DNA from: a virus
Strand: one strand, 5' to 3'
Length of the DNA: 32,262 nucleotides
Virus record (IMG/VR): IMGVR_UViG_3300045988_043480
Location: 1-32,262 of that record
In this document: positions 2,909 to 14,256 of the stretch, piece by piece
Position numbering within the stretch: the first letter of the stretch is position 1
Layout: the number at the start of each line of letters is the position of its first letter
Program-made: the position numbers and the translations under genes
Notes under the pieces: generated by a model
What the model saw: only the letters and a program-made list of their open reading frames with translations
Told to the model about the DNA's origin: nothing
Database searches by the model: none

Positions 2909-3058
2909 ATGCCTCTCAGCCAACGCAAAACCGAACTAGCCCTCCACTGGCACCGCAAACACTACGATCCCGAATACATCGCCACCCTACTCAACACCAG
3001 CCCAGAAGAAATACAAACCATCATCAACCAACACCAGCAACAAGCTAAACCCAAGTAA
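2909..3058 (+). CDS. Small hypothetical protein (49 aa)
   Basis: ATG at 2909 preceded by AAAGGAAC. Translation MPLSQRKTELALHWHRKHYDPEYIATLLNTSPEEIQTIINQHQQQAKPK. It fills the gap before TerS. Confidence 0.4.
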   Translation: MPLSQRKTELALHWHRKHYDPEYIATLLNTSPEEIQTIINQHQQQAKPK

Positions 3059-3073
3059 GCATAAAATACTCCT

Positions 3074-3469
3074 ATGAGCAACGTAACCCGCGACGCACAC
3101 GGACGCATAACCGGTGGAGTGAACAACCCGACCGGAAAAGGCGGCTTCCAAGAACGCCCACAAGACCGAGGCACATGGACAAAAGACACCAGCCCGACCC
3201 GATGGATACGCGAATACGGGAAACTCTCCGCTAAGGAATTCGCTGAGAAAGCGAAAGACCCGAACCTGACCATGATCCAGCGGATAGCGGTCAAGCATAT
3301 TGTTGACGCGGAGAAGAACCCGAAGGTCGCTACCGATCTGATCGACCGTTTGGACGGTAAACCGCACCAGTCCACCGACGTGAATGTTACCGGCTACGAG
3401 CCGCCGCGCATCGTGTTGGAACCGTTCGATGACAACCCCGAGAACAAGAAGGACGAGGATAATGAGTAA
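3074..3469 (+). CDS. Putative terminase small subunit
   Basis: It lies upstream of the packaging genes. The NPTGKGGFQERPQDRG motif is common in DUF5681-type small terminases, and the C-terminal tail is acidic. Confidence 0.5.
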   Translation: MSNVTRDAHGRITGGVNNPTGKGGFQERPQDRGTWTKDTSPTRWIREYGKLSAKEFAEKAKDPNLTMIQRIAVKHIVDAEKNPKVATDLIDRLDGKPHQSTDVNVTGYEPPRIVLEPFDDNPENKKDEDNE

Positions 3470-4013
3470 ACCACGCTTGCAAGTCCAAACCATGAAGACC
3501 AGTGACCTGATTCCCTATGCTCGGAACGCCAAACAGCATCCCGAAGAACAGGTGGCGCAGATCGCCGCGTCTATCCGTGAGTTCGGTATGAACGACCCTG
3601 TGGCGGTCTGACATGACAAGGACGGTACGCCGGTCATCGTGGAAGGCCACGGCAGGGTACTCGCCTTGCAGAAACTCAATATCGAGGAATGCCCGGTCAT
3701 CTGCCTTGATGACCTGACCGACTCACAACGCCGCGCCTACACGCTGATTCACAATCAGCTCACTATGAACACCGGGTGGGACGCAGATATACTCGGTCTG
3801 GAACTGGAAGACCTTACATCGGACTTCGATATGGACTTCTATGGGTTTGACCTGCCAGCGCTTGACGTGCAAGACCCGGACAGTGACGAAGGTTTGGACG
3901 ATATCAATGATAAACACGCCATCCAAGTCAACGTGGACGATGAAAACGAACTCGAAACTGTGTTCAACAAGCTAGTACAGGAGGGATATCAGTGCAAGAT
4001 CATCACCATCTGA
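3462..4013 (+). pseudogene. ParB/Srx-like N-terminal nuclease-domain protein interrupted by an in-frame TGA at 3609-3611
   Basis: Same frame on both sides of the stop: ...DLIPYARNAKQHPEEQVAQIAASIREFGMNDPVAV*HDKDGTPVIVEGHGRVLALQKLNIEECPVICLDDLTDSQRRAYTLIHNQL. Together these form one ParB-like domain with the GHGR motif. Confidence 0.75.
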
Positions 4014-4702
4014 CAATAGATATCACCCGGAGTAGCACGCCGCCGGTAGATAATTTCCGTGTTAACGCTATCCGCTCCGACTACGATTACACGGTTCCCG
4101 AGGTAACCGAGCATTTCACAGGGGAGATAATCCTCCCTGATGACTGGCAGATAGGCGTCATCGTCGGAGCCAGCGGAACAGGAAAAACAACTATCGCCCG
4201 CGAACTGTTCGGCGACTGCTTCACCCCACTGCCTGAGCATCGCAACCCCAGCGTGATAATGGACATGCCCCAAGGCCCCACGGTCGGAGAGATAACAAGA
4301 ATGTTCACCTCGCTCGGCTTCTCCAGCGTCCCGTCATGGCTGAAACCCTACCCGGTGCTGAGCAACGGGGAGAAAATGCGTGCCGATCTGGCATACACCC
4401 TGCTCTCAGCGACCCCGGATAATCCCGTGGCCTACGACGAATTCACCAGCGTTGTTGACCGGGACGTGGCACACAATCTCTGCCTTGCATTGCACAAGCA
4501 CATCAAACGCACGCCACGACTCCGGTTCATCGCGGTAACCTGCCACTCCGATATTCTCGATTGGTTGCAACCCGATTGGGTGTACTCCACGGATGATATG
4601 GGGATGATTGACCCAAAACATTCAAGCCCGCTCAACGACGGTTCACAGTCGAACGATGCGACCGAGGCGAGTGGGCAAAGTTTAAGCGATATCATTATCT
4701 GA
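3992..4702 (+). CDS. ABC-type ATPase domain protein; zero-frame product of a composite ATPase-GNAT gene
   Basis: GTG start 6 nt after AGGAGGG. Walker A GASGTGKTT, ABC signature LSNGEKMR, Walker B VAYDEFTSVVD, H-loop VTCHS. Confidence 0.7.
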   Translation: MQDHHHLTIDITRSSTPPVDNFRVNAIRSDYDYTVPEVTEHFTGEIILPDDWQIGVIVGASGTGKTTIARELFGDCFTPLPEHRNPSVIMDMPQGPTVGEITRMFTSLGFSSVPSWLKPYPVLSNGEKMRADLAYTLLSATPDNPVAYDEFTSVVDRDVAHNLCLALHKHIKRTPRLRFIAVTCHSDILDWLQPDWVYSTDDMGMIDPKHSSPLNDGSQSNDATEASGQSLSDIII

Positions 4703-5106
4703 CCGGCCAGCTGAATAACACCGCTCGATGCTGGGAGGTCAAATACTGCGGGAAGCCCGTTGGCTTCTGCGCGGTATTCAAGATGCCCAGATCTAACGGC
4801 ACTGCAATGGCCCGTATTCACAGAATCGTCATTCACCCTGACTGGCAGGGAATCGGACTAGGGAGAATGCTCGCCACAACGGTCGCCAAGCACGTGAGCC
4901 TCCAGTATGATTGCTTCCTGCAAACCTCGAACACCGCAATGAAGCACGCGCTTCTGCACTACGACGATTGGAAGCTAATCCGGAACAACACCAACATTAT
5001 GACTCTGAAACACGCGAGAAAACTCGCTGGGACGAAAAACCATAATTTAGCTAAAGCGTCACGCCGTGTGAAGACAGCCAGTTTCGTCATCAGGAAGCAC
5101 CAATGA
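4612..5106 (+). CDS. GNAT acetyltransferase domain in the -1 frame, open from 4612, probably fused to the upstream ATPase
   Basis: The frame reads PKTFKPAQRRFTVERCDRGEWAKFKRYHYLTGQLNNTARCWEVKYCGKPVGFCAVFKMPRSNGTAMARIHRIVIHPDWQGIGLGRML, which contains GNAT motif A (QGIGLG). The domain starts well upstream of the first ATG at 4783. Confidence 0.7.
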   Translation, partial: PKTFKPAQRRFTVERCDRGEWAKFKRYHYLTGQLNNTARCWEVKYCGKPVGFCAVFKMPRSNGTAMARIHRIVIHPDWQGIGLGRMLATTVAKHVSLQYDCFLQTSNTAMKHALLHYDDWKLIRNNTNIMTLKHARKLAGTKNHNLAKASRRVKTASFVIRKHQ

Positions 5107-6362
5107 AGATAGCTAAACCGTACCGTGATTTATGGTGGTGGATTCGCTCGGAGACGCCACCATACCGGTATTACTGCTACTCCGGTGGCCGAGCCAGCGG
5201 CAAGAGTACAAGCGTGGCGCAGAGTCTCATACTCCGTGCCGCAACCCAGCCCATCACGGTATTGTGCGCCCGCGAATTCCAGAACAGTATCACCGATTCC
5301 GTGCATAAACTTTTGGCTGACACCATCGAATCGTTCGGCGTCAAGGGCTTCGAGGTCACACGCGACTCCATCCGCCACATCAACGGGAGCCTATTCATCT
5401 TCCGAGGCCTCCACAACAATCTGCAATCGATCAAGAGCATCGAGGGCGTGGACGTATGTTGGGTGGAGGAAGCGCAGACCATCAGCAAGGAAAGCCTGAC
5501 CACGCTTATACCGACGATACGCCGCCCCAACTCCACTCTGATCTTCACTTGGAACCCGCTCACTTCACATGACCCGGTGTGGACGTACTTCATTACCGGT
5601 GATTCGGAGGAACGCCGCCGCCAGACCTGCCACTGGCACACCACCTACAACGACGTGCGCCGCCTGTTGAGCCAAGACGTTCTGGACATGATACGCGCCG
5701 ACCAACAGTCGGCGGACTACGCGCACATCTGGCTGGGCTTACCGTACTCCGATACCGATAACCAGCTAATCACCGATACGATGATAGGCGAAGCCGTCCA
5801 ACGTCAACCATTGGACGGCCCGGTAACGTTCGGCGTGGACGTGGCCCGATACGGCACCGACCGAACCGCGCTCTGCATCAAACAGGGCAACCGAATCAGC
5901 ATATTGGAATCGTGGACACACAGCAGCATCGTGAATACTGCGGAACGCATCAAACTCCGGGCCGCCCAGTACAAGCCAGTAGCCATCCGTGTGGACGATA
6001 CCGGCGTGGGCGGAGGGTTGACAGACCTGCTCAAGACAAGCGGGCTGCCCGTTGACGCCATCAACTACGCCGGTAAGGCGAAAGACCCGCAGTATCCGAA
6101 CGTGGCCAGCGAACTATGGTTTGACTTCGCTACCATGCTGCCCTCATTGAGCATCAACCCGCAATTGGATGACTTCGCCAAGCTCTCAAGCGAGCTGACC
6201 ACCAGACGGTGGAAGATCACCAGCCGGAACCAACGCCAGATCGAAAGCAAACAGGACTACAAAGATCGAGAGAATCTAGGTAGCCCCGATCTCGCAGACG
6301 CCGTACTGCTTGCCTGCTATGAGCCACCGAAACTACCGTCATGGAACGTAATGGTTTGCTAA
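5103..6362 (+). CDS. terL: Terminase large subunit
   Basis: Walker A GGRASGKS, a VCWVEEA Walker B-like motif, a C-terminal nuclease region, and a typical length of 419 aa. Confidence 0.9.
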   Translation: MKIAKPYRDLWWWIRSETPPYRYYCYSGGRASGKSTSVAQSLILRAATQPITVLCAREFQNSITDSVHKLLADTIESFGVKGFEVTRDSIRHINGSLFIFRGLHNNLQSIKSIEGVDVCWVEEAQTISKESLTTLIPTIRRPNSTLIFTWNPLTSHDPVWTYFITGDSEERRRQTCHWHTTYNDVRRLLSQDVLDMIRADQQSADYAHIWLGLPYSDTDNQLITDTMIGEAVQRQPLDGPVTFGVDVARYGTDRTALCIKQGNRISILESWTHSSIVNTAERIKLRAAQYKPVAIRVDDTGVGGGLTDLLKTSGLPVDAINYAGKAKDPQYPNVASELWFDFATMLPSLSINPQLDDFAKLSSELTTRRWKITSRNQRQIESKQDYKDRENLGSPDLADAVLLACYEPPKLPSWNVMVC

Positions 6363-6423
6363 TCGATTCGGCGTCATTGCCGGTAGACTGAGAAGCAGAG
6401 ACTTACGACGAATCGAGGAAACC

Positions 6424-8511
6424 GTGAGCTTACTCAGCAATCTCCGCGACGGGTTTATGAGCGCGTTCGACCGCAACCACGCGCCGAGCATGTCCCCCAC
6501 TCCAATGGGCGGGAATATCTGGCAGCCGATGGGCGGCAACAGCATCCCCATGAACGACACCTACGATAACGTGTTCCCCTATGTGAACGCCATCGCCCAG
6601 CGGTTCAGCACGGTGATCCCCTACGCCGTGGACGCGGAGAACAGGCGTATCGAACCGGCCCCCGCACCGTTGGCCGCGCTCTACGCGCCCAACGACACCT
6701 ATTCCTGCCTCGAATTCCTGAAACTCGTTTGCGCCAGCATCCTCACCCAATCCCACTTGGACATCCTTATCTGGACAACCAACGGGCCGGGCGGAGACAT
6801 CACAGCCGACAACATCATCGGCTATACGCTGCTACCGTCCAACAGCCGCCAATACAATTCCACACGCTCCGACTGGTATCACCGCGTCACCATGGACTTC
6901 GGCGAAGGCGAACGAGTCTACGAATTCAGCCGTGATGAAACCATCGCCCTCAGCTACAGTCAGCATCCGAACGACCCGACGCGCGGCATAGCTCCAGCCA
7001 TGACCGTGAAGAAGTGGGCCAACGTGGACGACATGATCGCCGACTATGAACGTGGTTTCTTCGGCAACAACGCCGTACCTGCCGGAATGCTCGGCATCGT
7101 GTCCGAGAACACGGAGGACTTCCAGCGTAACCGCGACCGGCTCGAAAACACGTTCCGTGGAGCCGGGAACAACAACGGAATCGTCTATAACATGATCCCG
7201 GTTGACCCGATGACCCATAAGCCCAGCACCACCAGCAAACTCGTGTGGGTGCCGTTCCAGAACGCCAACGATACGCTGGACTTGCAGACCGTGAACGACG
7301 TGGTGAACAACCGCTTGTCGAACGCGCTCGCAGTACCGGACATTATTCGCGGCATCGACAACGGACAGACCTACGCCAACGCCGAACAGGCCGAACGCGC
7401 GTTCATCGAAAACACGTTAAAGCCGCTGTGTATGACGGTGTGGGATAAATGGCAGTTCGAGCTTGACCGCATCACCGGAGGACTCGGCTATGGCATCACG
7501 TTCGACCTCGATCTACCCTCCCAGACCGACGTGGAGAAGGTGCAGGCGGACACCCAGAAGGTGCGTATCGACTCGCTCACCCAGCTTCTAAGCATGGGTG
7601 CCAGTCTGGAATCTGCCGTGGACGCGCTCGGCCTCCCCGAAGCGTACAAGCGTCTGGACTTGCACCAGCAGGCTCCGACGCTGACTATCCCCATAGCCGC
7701 GAATCGATATGCGCGGAATATCAAACCGCAGGAAACGGCCACCGAGAACCGTATCCTCCCGGCGACGCGACGCTACGTGAACCGAGTAATCCGCATGGCC
7801 CGCCGCTCCCAGAACGGTTTGCGTGATGATCTGGAAGCCATCGGCGACCAGTGGATAAACGACGTGGAAGACGAGTTGATGACCAACCTCGCCGCCTACG
7901 CGCGACGCACCGGCTACGAGCTGGAGCAGGTCATCACCGCGTGGGCGGAAGTCCATCCGGAAAGCGCCATTGCCGTGGAGGTCGAGGGATACACCGCCGA
8001 TGATTGGCGGCAACTCTACTTCTGGAGCGAACTACCCGATACCGTGCGTGAAGCGTACTTGGAGCACTTGCGTAGCATCGCCAAGTCCACCAGCAAGACC
8101 ATCACGAACAACGTCCTTGAACTCCTGAACCGTGCCGACGTGGAACAGTGGAACGCGGAACAGTTGCGCGACCGTCTCGAACGATTGGGCAACGATCACG
8201 CCGAACTTATCGCCCGCTGTGAGACGGTGCAATCCCAGCGGCTCGGCAGCTTGTACAGCGCCCGCAACCTCAGCGAAACGCTCGGCGTCCGACTGGACAA
8301 GGTATGGCGCACTTCCGGTGACAGCAAGGTATGTGAATTCTGCCGCCACATGGAAGGCGACCGCATCCCGCTCGATGACACGTACATGGCTGAGAACGCC
8401 AGCGTGGAAATCGGAGACCGCACGTATGTCAACAACTTCGAGAGTATGCAGACGCCGAACGGACACCCCAACTGCCGTTGCTACGAGGATTACGAGGTGG
8501 TGGAATCATGA
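6424..8511 (+). CDS. Portal protein fused to a MuF / SPP1 gp7-like head morphogenesis domain
   Basis: 695 aa, GTG start after GAGGA. The N-terminal ~450 aa are portal-like. The C-terminus carries the MuF signature VWRTSGDSKVCEFCRHMEGD...NGHPNCRC. Confidence 0.85.
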   Translation: MSLLSNLRDGFMSAFDRNHAPSMSPTPMGGNIWQPMGGNSIPMNDTYDNVFPYVNAIAQRFSTVIPYAVDAENRRIEPAPAPLAALYAPNDTYSCLEFLKLVCASILTQSHLDILIWTTNGPGGDITADNIIGYTLLPSNSRQYNSTRSDWYHRVTMDFGEGERVYEFSRDETIALSYSQHPNDPTRGIAPAMTVKKWANVDDMIADYERGFFGNNAVPAGMLGIVSENTEDFQRNRDRLENTFRGAGNNNGIVYNMIPVDPMTHKPSTTSKLVWVPFQNANDTLDLQTVNDVVNNRLSNALAVPDIIRGIDNGQTYANAEQAERAFIENTLKPLCMTVWDKWQFELDRITGGLGYGITFDLDLPSQTDVEKVQADTQKVRIDSLTQLLSMGASLESAVDALGLPEAYKRLDLHQQAPTLTIPIAANRYARNIKPQETATENRILPATRRYVNRVIRMARRSQNGLRDDLEAIGDQWINDVEDELMTNLAAYARRTGYELEQVITAWAEVHPESAIAVEVEGYTADDWRQLYFWSELPDTVREAYLEHLRSIAKSTSKTITNNVLELLNRADVEQWNAEQLRDRLERLGNDHAELIARCETVQSQRLGSLYSARNLSETLGVRLDKVWRTSGDSKVCEFCRHMEGDRIPLDDTYMAENASVEIGDRTYVNNFESMQTPNGHPNCRCYEDYEVVES

Positions 8512-13573: not shown

Positions 13574-13927
13574 ATGACTACCCCGGTTTTAAGCATCGAT
13601 ACCCGCGAAGCGTTCCGCACCCTTACGGTGAAGCTTGACGGCACGGTGTACACCATGCGTCCGCTCGGCTCGAAGGATATGCTAACGATTCTGGATAATG
13701 CGGAGACGATCGACAAGCTGAGCGCTGGCGTGGCCAACCGTGAGACGTTGGAAACAGCGGAAAAGATTATCTTCCCGTTGGTCGAATCGCTTATGAGTCC
13801 CGCCGATAAATTCTACGAGTGGGCTTCGCAGACCCGCCAGCGTAGCGACCTCGCCTATCAGCGTGCCATGACCGCGTTGTCTGGGCTTATGGCGAAGAAC
13901 ATCACCGTTGCCATCAAGGGCGAATAA
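13574..13927 (+). CDS. Tail assembly chaperone candidate
   Basis: It lies between the major tail and tape measure genes. 117 aa. Confidence 0.55.
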   Translation: MTTPVLSIDTREAFRTLTVKLDGTVYTMRPLGSKDMLTILDNAETIDKLSAGVANRETLETAEKIIFPLVESLMSPADKFYEWASQTRQRSDLAYQRAMTALSGLMAKNITVAIKGE

Positions 13928-14256
13928 TGAAGTCGTGGGATAGCCTGCTCACTCCCGCCGAACGGGAGAAGATGCGGAAATTCAAGCAGCAGGAACAAGC
14001 ACGCCGCCCGCTGCCGTCCGTTCGTATCCTCGCTGAACTCGGTGACATGTACGGGTGGCAGGCTATCCGCGACGTGCTGGAAAACAACGTTGACCCCGAC
14101 CTTATGATGCGACTTCTACGGGAGGGCCGGAACGTGCGGCGCAAGCATCTGGCCGACCAGTATCGCATGATGTTTGAGAGCATCGCCGCCGCTTTCACTA
14201 AGCATGGCGACCGCAAGATTAACGCGATCATCGAAAAACTCGGGAAGGACTCGTGA
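13927..14256 (+). CDS. Second tail assembly chaperone-position protein
   Basis: It sits in the -1 frame relative to 13574..13927 but has its own ATG (TAATG overlap) and an AAGGG RBS. Confidence 0.5.
   Translation: MKSWDSLLTPAEREKMRKFKQQEQARRPLPSVRILAELGDMYGWQAIRDVLENNVDPDLMMRLLREGRNVRRKHLADQYRMMFESIAAAFTKHGDRKINAIIEKLGKDS

Follow-up and report, generated by a model that had tools for sequence, protein, structure and literature searches.

The window analysed here is a stretch of 32,262 nucleotides (nt), positions 1 to 32,262 of IMG/VR virus record IMGVR_UViG_3300045988_043480, in which a 1.64-kb cassette (3462-5106) lies between a gene resembling that of the small terminase subunit (TerS) and the gene of the large terminase subunit (TerL). 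The cassette, which is encoded on the plus strand like the two genes that flank it, consists of a ParB-like gene (3462-4013) and a second gene (3992-5106), in which an ABC-type ATPase domain and a GNAT acyltransferase domain are encoded in two different reading frames. The genes are closely packed: a GTG at 3992, with an AGGAGG Shine-Dalgarno sequence 7 nt before it (3979-3984), starts the ATPase inside the ParB-like gene, and at 5103 the GNAT stop and the TerL start overlap in an ATGA. Both overlaps, as well as the motifs of all three domains, had been quoted in an initial annotation of this DNA, which was made from the letters without database searches, and all of them are seen in the sequence.

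The ATPase-GNAT gene and its slippery site

The 0-frame open reading frame (ORF) of the second gene (3992-4702) encodes 236 amino acids (aa) and ends at a TGA (4700-4702), covering a complete ABC-type ATPase domain followed by a poorly conserved 27-aa tail. Its Walker A motif (GASGTGKT) lies at 4166-4189 and, together with the LSNGE signature, the Walker B motif (YDEFTS), the D-loop (SVVD), and the CH of the H-loop, is invariant in 57 family members. Judged by these motifs and by its profile, which matched ABC nucleotide-binding domains in the PDB (E 6e-14), the domain belongs to the ABC ATPase superfamily; the Pfam model ABC_tran alone scored below its cut-off for the window's ATPase (17 vs. 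25 bits). No permease family was found among the downstream neighbours scanned in the relatives, the upstream scan gave ParB_N only, and in the window the cassette is bordered by the TerS-like ORF and TerL rather than by a transporter partner. The early description of a complete ABC ATPase without a transporter partner agrees with these scans, and public annotations of the ATPase as an 'ABC transporter' are misnomers.

The GNAT domain is located in the -1 frame, in a segment of 162 codons and a stop (4618-5106) that encodes a linker and the acyltransferase and whose frame is conserved among relatives. The domain was recognized by Pfam Acetyltransf_1 (PF00583, 36 bits vs. a cut-off of 20.7) and carries the acyl-CoA motif QGIGLG (4846-4863), of which Q286, G287, and G289 are invariant in the same 57 members. 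The interval 3992-5106 measures 1115 nt and is not a multiple of three, and a 371-aa product can only arise as a -1 trans-frame protein, from 209 codons up to 4618 and 162 codons from 4618 onwards. The -1 frame offers no ATG, GTG, or TTG before the ATG at 4783, which is 57 codons into conserved sequence, and according to the predicted model a product started there would be without the first third of the GNAT fold. The trans-frame product matches phrog_11143 (function unknown) colinearly over residues 22-348 (E 6e-78), and its predicted model (pLDDT 89.5, pTM 0.83) superposes on a single-ORF protein of Leptospira phage LE4 at TM 0.78. In the model, Lys209 at the slip site is placed just past the last strand of the ATPase core, so the 0-frame product would be a complete ATPase with a non-conserved tail. 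The nearest database proteins are all ATPase-only ORFs of 232-236 aa (58-95% identical), one cluster of which holds 1533 member sequences, while remoter relatives are single-ORF ATPase-GNAT proteins of 350-370 aa. The 371-aa ATPase-GNAT fusion proposed initially is thus supported by the colinear family match, but not as one ORF; the GNAT domain is out of frame, and the -1 shift needed at 4612-4618 had been missed.

The proposed shift site is the slippery heptamer C_CCA_AAA (4612-4618), which is in phase with the ATPase frame and covers codons Pro208-Lys209. It is invariant in the window, L001-L018, L020, and L021 (L numbers designate individual loci), which are relatives down to 58% identity, while the flanking codons vary; the junction reads GAC CCA AAA in all contigs encoding short ATPase forms. 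The heptamer occurs only twice in the 32-kb window, and in the window's -1 frame a TGA stands immediately 5' of CCC. Reading on after a -1 slip gives ..PK(T/R/M)FKP..RRFTVERC..EW..F.RYHYL.., which is the linker and GNAT N-terminus of the family. A survey of 166 loci (the window, 85 viral loci, and 80 genome loci) revealed the -1 arrangement in 40 of them, namely the window, 34 viral loci, and five genome loci, including contigs of metagenome-assembled genomes labelled Bathyarchaeota and Coxiellaceae, as well as Capnocytophaga and Kaistella contigs. Every shifted survey locus except L019 carries an in-phase X_XXY_YYZ heptamer (C_CCA_AAA, T_TTT_TTT, T_TTT_TTC, A_AAA_AAA, A_AAA_AAG, or C_CCT_TTT) at a shared position in the linker, 8-10 residues after a DW[VI][YF][DN]T motif, and an Oenococcus phage outside this list has A_AAG_GGC at the linker position. 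As a control, in-phase heptamers were counted in 30 of 32 distinct shifted junctions and in 2 of 112 single-ORF junctions. In the overlap of the two frames, distant pairs share 0.59-0.67 amino-acid identity in the -1 frame versus 0.33-0.44 in the 0 frame. The two-frame structure of the gene and the conservation of its slippery site are direct observations.

A predicted RNA stem-loop (4626-4676; dG -23.9 kcal/mol, z -2.2) begins 7 nt after the heptamer and is a candidate frameshift stimulator. Similar stems with spacers of 5-8 nt were predicted in six of nine other lineages (L001, L002 with z -3.6, L022, L029, L087, and L110), giving, with the window, 7 of 10 lineages with z-scores of -1.7 to -3.6. 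In a rough neighbour-joining tree, the shifted genes form one deep clade and two small clades, with at least four changes of state. The single-ORF genes of L026 and L027 nest in the large frameshifted clade, which suggests, from sequence, that they are reversions to a plain fusion. The two-piece split is also found in isolate-derived phages and prophages (P335, S. pyogenes 315.4, phiNIH1.1, S. mitis MismyG, and Oenococcus phages), annotated there as two genes. In P335, 315.4, and MismyG the pieces are publicly labelled 'ABC transporter' or 'iron siderophore transporter' and 'hypothetical protein'; in Lactococcus phage P335 they are orf24 'putative ABC-transporter' and orf25 'unknown'.

The frame break might instead be explained by a mistake in sequencing or assembly, by decay into a pseudogene, or by separate translation of two genes, since several shift sites are error-prone homopolymers (A7, T7), the cassette carries other inactivating mutations, and database annotators call two genes. 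However, the same -1 break recurs at the same position in the 40 loci, in cultured phages, and in the cluster of 1533 sequences, and the occurrence of the same split in records derived from isolates disfavours assembly error. As well, C_CCA_AAA holds only a 4-base run, the heptamer is specific to the shifted members, and the -1 frame is kept open and conserved in relatives as distant as about 40% identity, without a start codon early enough for a whole GNAT fold. Sequencing error, pseudogenisation, and independent translation are consequently very unlikely. Some observations weigh against programmed frameshifting itself. The L019 site reads C_CTA_AAA, and P335 (L166), 315.4 (L167), and MismyG (L168) are without a canonical heptamer, their likely site (locus positions ~3090-3110) being CAG GTT TTT CAA TAC CCC CAC, that is, G_GTT_TTT or C_CCC_C, with a C-rich run after it. 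C_CCA_AAA does not rank with the most efficient shift sites of bacteria, the stem z-scores are modest, and RNAalifold found no covariation or compensatory changes in the C_CCA_AAA clade. Transcriptional slippage is possible in lineages with A7 or T7 runs, as are homopolymer miscalls, but is unlikely on C_CCA_AAA. Taking both sides together, the sequence comparisons make it highly probable that the ATPase-GNAT gene is expressed by a programmed -1 frameshift. From the same patterns we infer that the slippage is ribosomal rather than transcriptional, and the same holds for the product ratio considered below.

The ParB-like gene and the accessory status of the module

The ParB-like gene (3462-4013, 183 codons) encodes an N-terminal domain of the ParB/Srx, CTPase-type fold and is interrupted by an in-frame TGA at codon 50 (3609-3611, ..NDPVAV*HDKDG..), where intact relatives have TGG (Trp). 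With Trp restored, the product matched phrog_620 'ParB-like partition protein' (E 7e-47) and Pfam ParB_N (PF02195, 27.9 bits vs. a cut-off of 26.3). The profile of the family recovered the N-terminal domains of Spo0J/Noc (CTPase fold) in the PDB (E 4.5e-13), and the best PADLOC match of the protein was the ParB module found at the N-terminus of type II DNA methyltransferases (E 1.8e-32). A box II GxxR motif is also present, since GHGR in ..VEGHGRVLA.. aligns with GERR of Spo0J, the Glu of which is His here. On these profile matches the product belongs to the ParB/Srx superfamily, as had been claimed from its motifs, and only the continuity of the gene was misjudged. A partition protein of the ParABS type was considered and rejected, because the N-terminal domain alone matches and no ParA-like gene turned up in the neighbour scans; parS sites were not searched for.

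The Trp-to-TGA change has either knocked out the ParB-like gene in the window or cut its expression to UGA read-through levels. An alternative genetic code was rejected as an explanation, for TGA ends the ParB, ATPase, and GNAT frames, and so was a phage suppressor tRNA, for the window has no tRNA genes and the odd tRNA of L018/L019 looks like one of Arg(TCG) type or a degenerate one. Codon 50 is likewise TGA in L018, which has a second TGA at W105, and L008 has TAA at ParB codon 61 (E61). The window and L018 proteins are only 63% identical, yet the same Trp codon has become TGA in both, each time followed by C. TGA-C is a leaky stop context, and these two alleles may be hypomorphs rather than nulls. 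In L014 a TAA stands seven codons into the GNAT frame (5621+21). TerL and portal genes are intact in contigs carrying ParB or GNAT nonsense codons. Given the stop codon in the ParB-like gene, the module may be non-functional in the window's genome.

Among the surveyed ATPase-GNAT loci, a ParB-like gene is present in 154 of 166. It was counted by a profile search of the upstream ORFs, which placed it directly upstream in 135 loci and farther upstream on the same strand in 19. In L034 and P0148 (P numbers designate proteins) ParB is fused to the ATPase. The co-inheritance of the two genes, on which the initial annotation had made its module depend, is therefore observed directly. The family is large: 249 clusters at 50% identity matched with E <=1e-30, and more than 7000 clusters at 90% identity were matched. 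Its architecture also varies, as P0140 and P0247 (798-808 aa) consist of tandem ABC domains and GNAT, while P0172, P0182, P0213, and P0220 (576-596 aa) have an N-terminal extension of about 220 aa before ABC and GNAT. ParB_N was recognized in an N-terminal extension in P0148 only.

The commonest downstream neighbours in relatives are the terminase subunits. In Gordonia phages the module lies at the genome end, adjoining the terminase genes, and in Oenococcus phages it lies at the end of a circular record. Three other kinds of neighbour recur in relatives. Twelve loci (L072, L046, L047, L061, L066-L069, L073, L083, L084, and L108) have a four-gene operon in the order ParB-like, ABC-ATPase-GNAT, aspartate 1-decarboxylase (PanD, E 1.5e-28), and a truncated CoA-transferase family III-like gene; in L072 these occupy 4345-4953, 4935-6212, 6372-6719, and 6661-7407, respectively. 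PanD and CoA-transferase genes hint at a beta-alanyl-CoA donor in some relatives. A formyltransferase-like gene with an HxSLLPxxxG motif, confirmed as Pfam Formyl_trans_N for three, follows GNAT directly in 17 genome loci (L110, L134, L136, L138, L140, L142, L146, L147, L152, L153, L155-L158, and L161-L163), about 100-700 nt past the GNAT stop. These are mostly proteobacterial genome contigs, several without a detectable ParB-like gene. A role in reading modified bases has been proposed for ASCH/PUA-like domains, and an ASCH-domain gene directly follows GNAT in S. pyogenes 315.4 (L167, 3589-3966) and S. mitis MismyG (L168, 3611-3979). YqfB-type ASCH proteins are N4-acetylcytidine amidohydrolases (PMC9599836). 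In relatives of 71-73% identity, a tRNA cluster lies between GNAT and TerL (L001, 4211-4696; L018, 4129-4427; L019, 6210-6680), which includes Ser-GCT, Gln-TTG, and an odd tRNA for which ARAGORN gave an anticodon loop of 6 nt.

The closest cultured relative, Bifidobacterium phage BlindUri1 (L170, 21107-22803), shows the locus without the cassette, the TerS-like gene being followed directly by TerL with an 18-nt gap. Its TerS-like (37% identical), TerL (50%), and portal (48%) genes have the same order as in the window, and homologues of the ParB-like, ATPase, or GNAT sequences are found nowhere in its genome. Of its 46 genes, the one for the tape measure protein alone has an annotation other than hypothetical. 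Since BlindUri1 has the flanks without the cassette, the 1.64-kb segment is an insertion outside the core packaging machinery, that is, an accessory element. The natural nonsense codons in cassettes beside intact TerL and portal genes are consistent with its dispensability. The tight coupling and co-inheritance of the genes support the single module that was first envisaged as acting at or before packaging, while BlindUri1 shows that the module is no integral part of the packaging machinery.

The TerS-like ORF (3074-3469, 131 aa), the stop of which overlaps the ParB-like start, lies outside the module and matched no Pfam or PHROG family. It owes its name to its position and to the ORF directly upstream of TerL in BlindUri1 (E 3e-23), whereas TerL (5103-6362), likewise outside the module, was confirmed by Pfam Terminase_3 (E 4e-38). 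Of the terminase flanks named initially, TerL has family support and TerS does not.

The window's phage is a siphophage of about 32 kb, and its nearest cultured relatives are phages of Bifidobacterium asteroides from the honeybee gut. The identity to them of 48% (portal) and 50% (TerL), together with a WhiB gene in L005, suggests that the host is probably a Bifidobacterium. A scan of GTDB genomes gave no relative above 50% identity, so that the host could not be read from a prophage, and a megablast search of 3000-6400 against cultured phages gave zero matches. When ten other proteins of the window were scanned against PHROG, only an endolysin and a tail fibre were recognized and no further modification genes, and no tRNA, PanD, CoA-transferase, formyltransferase, or ASCH genes are present in the window. 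Two small ORFs upstream of the tape measure gene (13574-14256) overlap by ATGA; in this tail-chaperone region, which served as an internal comparator, no in-phase canonical slippery heptamer was seen and the usual tail-chaperone frameshift was not evident.

Proposed function and rival explanations

The family of the trans-frame product is catalogued as PHROG 11143 and named 'ABC-type ATPase with predicted acetyltransferase domain' by JGI. According to section 3.4.7 of PMC7824862, the Aravind group (Iyer, Zhang, Burroughs & Aravind 2013) predicted that the family acylates a DNA base. The cassette itself is therefore already catalogued and predicted, and the early statement that the family was not a recognized one was overstated. 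No family with an experimentally known substrate was recovered by our profile and fold searches, and on this point the initial annotation was right: PDB sequence and fold searches gave only generic ABC nucleotide-binding domains, GNATs, and a low-TM match to TmcA; NCBIfam gave only sub-threshold generic ABC and RimI matches; and in PADLOC the ATPase-GNAT product matched no defence system, apart from weak similarity to the mad3 ABC protein. Literature searches on a phage ABC-type ATPase with an acetyltransferase domain, on COG2401, and on frameshift with acetyltransferase and ParB returned nothing, and within a limited literature coverage no report of this frameshift was found. The frameshift gating the GNAT domain appears to be unreported, as do the replacement of one heptamer by another across deeply diverged lineages and the operon variants with PanD/CoA-transferase or formyltransferase genes.

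Our best overall explanation, which we hold to be reasonably probable, is a two-gene accessory module that expresses its ATPase-GNAT protein by frameshifting and performs acyl base modification. Normal decoding would end at 4702 and yield the 236-aa ATPase-only protein, whereas a fraction of ribosomes would slip by -1 on C_CCA_AAA, probably aided by the stem-loop, and produce the 371-aa ATPase-GNAT. As the GNAT domain needs the shift, frameshifting would be the sole route to it and would fix the ratio in which ATPase-only and ATPase-GNAT subunits are made. Since ABC ATPases dimerise around ATP and work as ATP-sandwich dimers, mixed dimers of the two subunits are likely. The ParB-like protein, having no partition partner, may load or activate the complex on a nucleic acid, for which phage DNA at a late stage of infection, shortly before it is packaged, is the most probable candidate. 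Driven by ATP, the ABC dimer would then close and present a base to the GNAT site, which would move an acyl group from acyl-CoA onto an exocyclic amine, and the resulting acyl base modification could serve self-marking or counter-defence.

Both DNA as the substrate and the acyl chemistry are inferred, and acylation of nucleic acid, DNA in particular, is proposed tentatively and by analogy, at a little less than an even chance. The PanD/CoA-transferase, formyltransferase, and ASCH neighbours in relatives support such an acyl modification. A wider and rather doubtful extension would be a widespread phage system that places an acyl mark on DNA bases before packaging, with a ParB-fold loader and an ABC-ATPase clamp bearing GNAT, the number of GNAT domains per dimer being fixed by frameshifting in a deep clade that includes some archaeal elements as well as phages of Actinobacteria, Firmicutes, and Bacteroidota. 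N4- or N6-acetyl groups would be candidates for the mark, as would beta-alanyl groups in those relatives that encode PanD and a CoA-transferase. Several findings count against our overall explanation. The PanD, CoA-transferase, formyltransferase, and ASCH clues come from relatives of 40-45% identity and not from the window, tRNA genes flank the module in some phages, and the matches of the GNAT profile are generic, with a weak RimI match and a tRNA acetyltransferase as the best fold match. Moreover, the nonsense mutations in ParB (window, L008, and L018) and in GNAT (L014) indicate a module that is dispensable and perhaps inactive here.

A serious rival to DNA is an RNA or protein target, in which the same frameshifted module would, like TmcA, acetylate a cytidine of tRNA or rRNA, or would acetylate a protein of the host or of a defence system for takeover or counter-defence. 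TmcA is the top fold match in the PDB, the GNAT has a weak RimI-type match, tRNA genes lie beside the module in L001, L018, L019, and MismyG, and phage GNATs that acetylate host proteins are known, such as Rac of phiKMV-like phages (PMC7824862). Furthermore, free N4-acetylcytidine is the substrate of those YqfB-type ASCH enzymes that have been characterised, and they did not bind nucleic acid (PMC9599836), which fits an RNA or protein target as well. The TmcA match, however, reaches only TM 0.29 and involves a different P-loop class, and the obligate partner is a ParB-fold protein with its closest relatives among N-terminal modules of DNA methyltransferases; ParB is even fused to the ATPase in some members, and the module is consistently positioned just upstream of the terminase genes. 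RNA or protein acylation is thus a minority possibility, perhaps one chance among several. A role as a DNA-packaging accessory was also considered, with the ParB-like protein as a nuclease or a binder of pac/cos sites that aids the terminase, as HNH proteins do, and the ATPase-GNAT as a regulator. Such a role would suit the overlapping starts and stops between the TerS-like gene and TerL, the terminase neighbours of the relatives, and the placement at genome or record ends in Gordonia and Oenococcus phages, and nuclease or NTPase activity has been documented for ParB-fold proteins (PMC5512222). BlindUri1 nevertheless has homologous TerS-like, TerL, and portal genes without the cassette, nonsense mutations arise naturally in ParB or GNAT while TerL and portal stay intact, and the PanD, CoA-transferase, formyltransferase, and ASCH neighbours would be left unexplained, so that we consider a packaging function improbable.

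To our knowledge, no GNAT except Mom has been demonstrated to place acyl modifications on DNA bases. If acyl base modification by the frameshifted module is correct, the ABC-ATPase-GNAT family would represent a common and unexplored epigenetic or counter-defence chemistry, and its frameshift is a cheaply testable handle in cultured phages such as P335 or 315.4. The frameshift would also correct the annotation of dozens of public phage genomes, in which the gene is split into 'ABC transporter' and 'hypothetical protein', and lengthen the short list of programmed frameshifts known from bacterial viruses by one case, with heptamer turnover at a fixed position over deep divergence. If real, it would form a new class of recoding outside the dnaX, tail-chaperone, and transposase cases.

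Comparison with known systems

The E. coli dnaX gene (tau/gamma), the phage tail-assembly chaperones G/GT, and insertion sequence transposases use -1 frameshifts to make two products with a shared N-terminus. The site proposed here resembles theirs in its in-phase X_XXY_YYZ heptamer with a predicted stem-loop downstream, and in that it would give rise to two proteins, a short one from the 0 frame and a longer or alternative one across the two frames. It differs in belonging to another gene family and in that the shifted product would gain a catalytic domain. The other members of PHROG 11143 share with the window the domain order, the colinear match, the association with ParB, and the phage context (PMC7824862), whereas in the window and the deep sub-clade the two domains lie in different frames joined by a slippery heptamer.

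TmcA/NAT10 also combine a P-loop NTPase and a GNAT in one polypeptide and act on a nucleic-acid base, but have a RecD-like helicase NTPase, a DUF1726 domain, and a tRNA-binding tail, and no ParB partner. TmcA was the top Foldseek hit of the trans-frame product, yet at TM 0.29, and sequence homology does not extend beyond the generic GNAT and P-loop. Identity with TmcA/NAT10 was rejected on this value and on the ABC class of the P-loop domain, and TmcA is only an analogue, as the initial annotation had it. Mom of phage Mu, the product of a late gene, is a GNAT-superfamily enzyme with a proposed acyl-CoA-type donor that acts on a DNA adenine base (PMC7824862). It has no ABC ATPase or ParB partner, and the likeness to it is one of description.

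For the ParB-like protein, the closest parallels are DNA-modification systems in which a ParB homologue assists an enzyme. Phage ParB homologues were shown to activate DNA T-dioxygenases (5mYOX), which need their cognate ParB (PMC13229309), and the ParB-like ATPase DpdB assists the DNA transglycosylase DpdA (PMC12839542). In 5mYOX/ParB, DpdA/DpdB, and the ParB-methyltransferase fusions, as in the cassette described here, a short ParB homologue without an obvious DNA-binding domain stands beside or is fused to an enzyme. Their partner, however, is a dioxygenase, a transglycosylase, or a methyltransferase, whereas here it is an ABC-ATPase-GNAT protein, which by analogy may likewise depend on its ParB-like neighbour.

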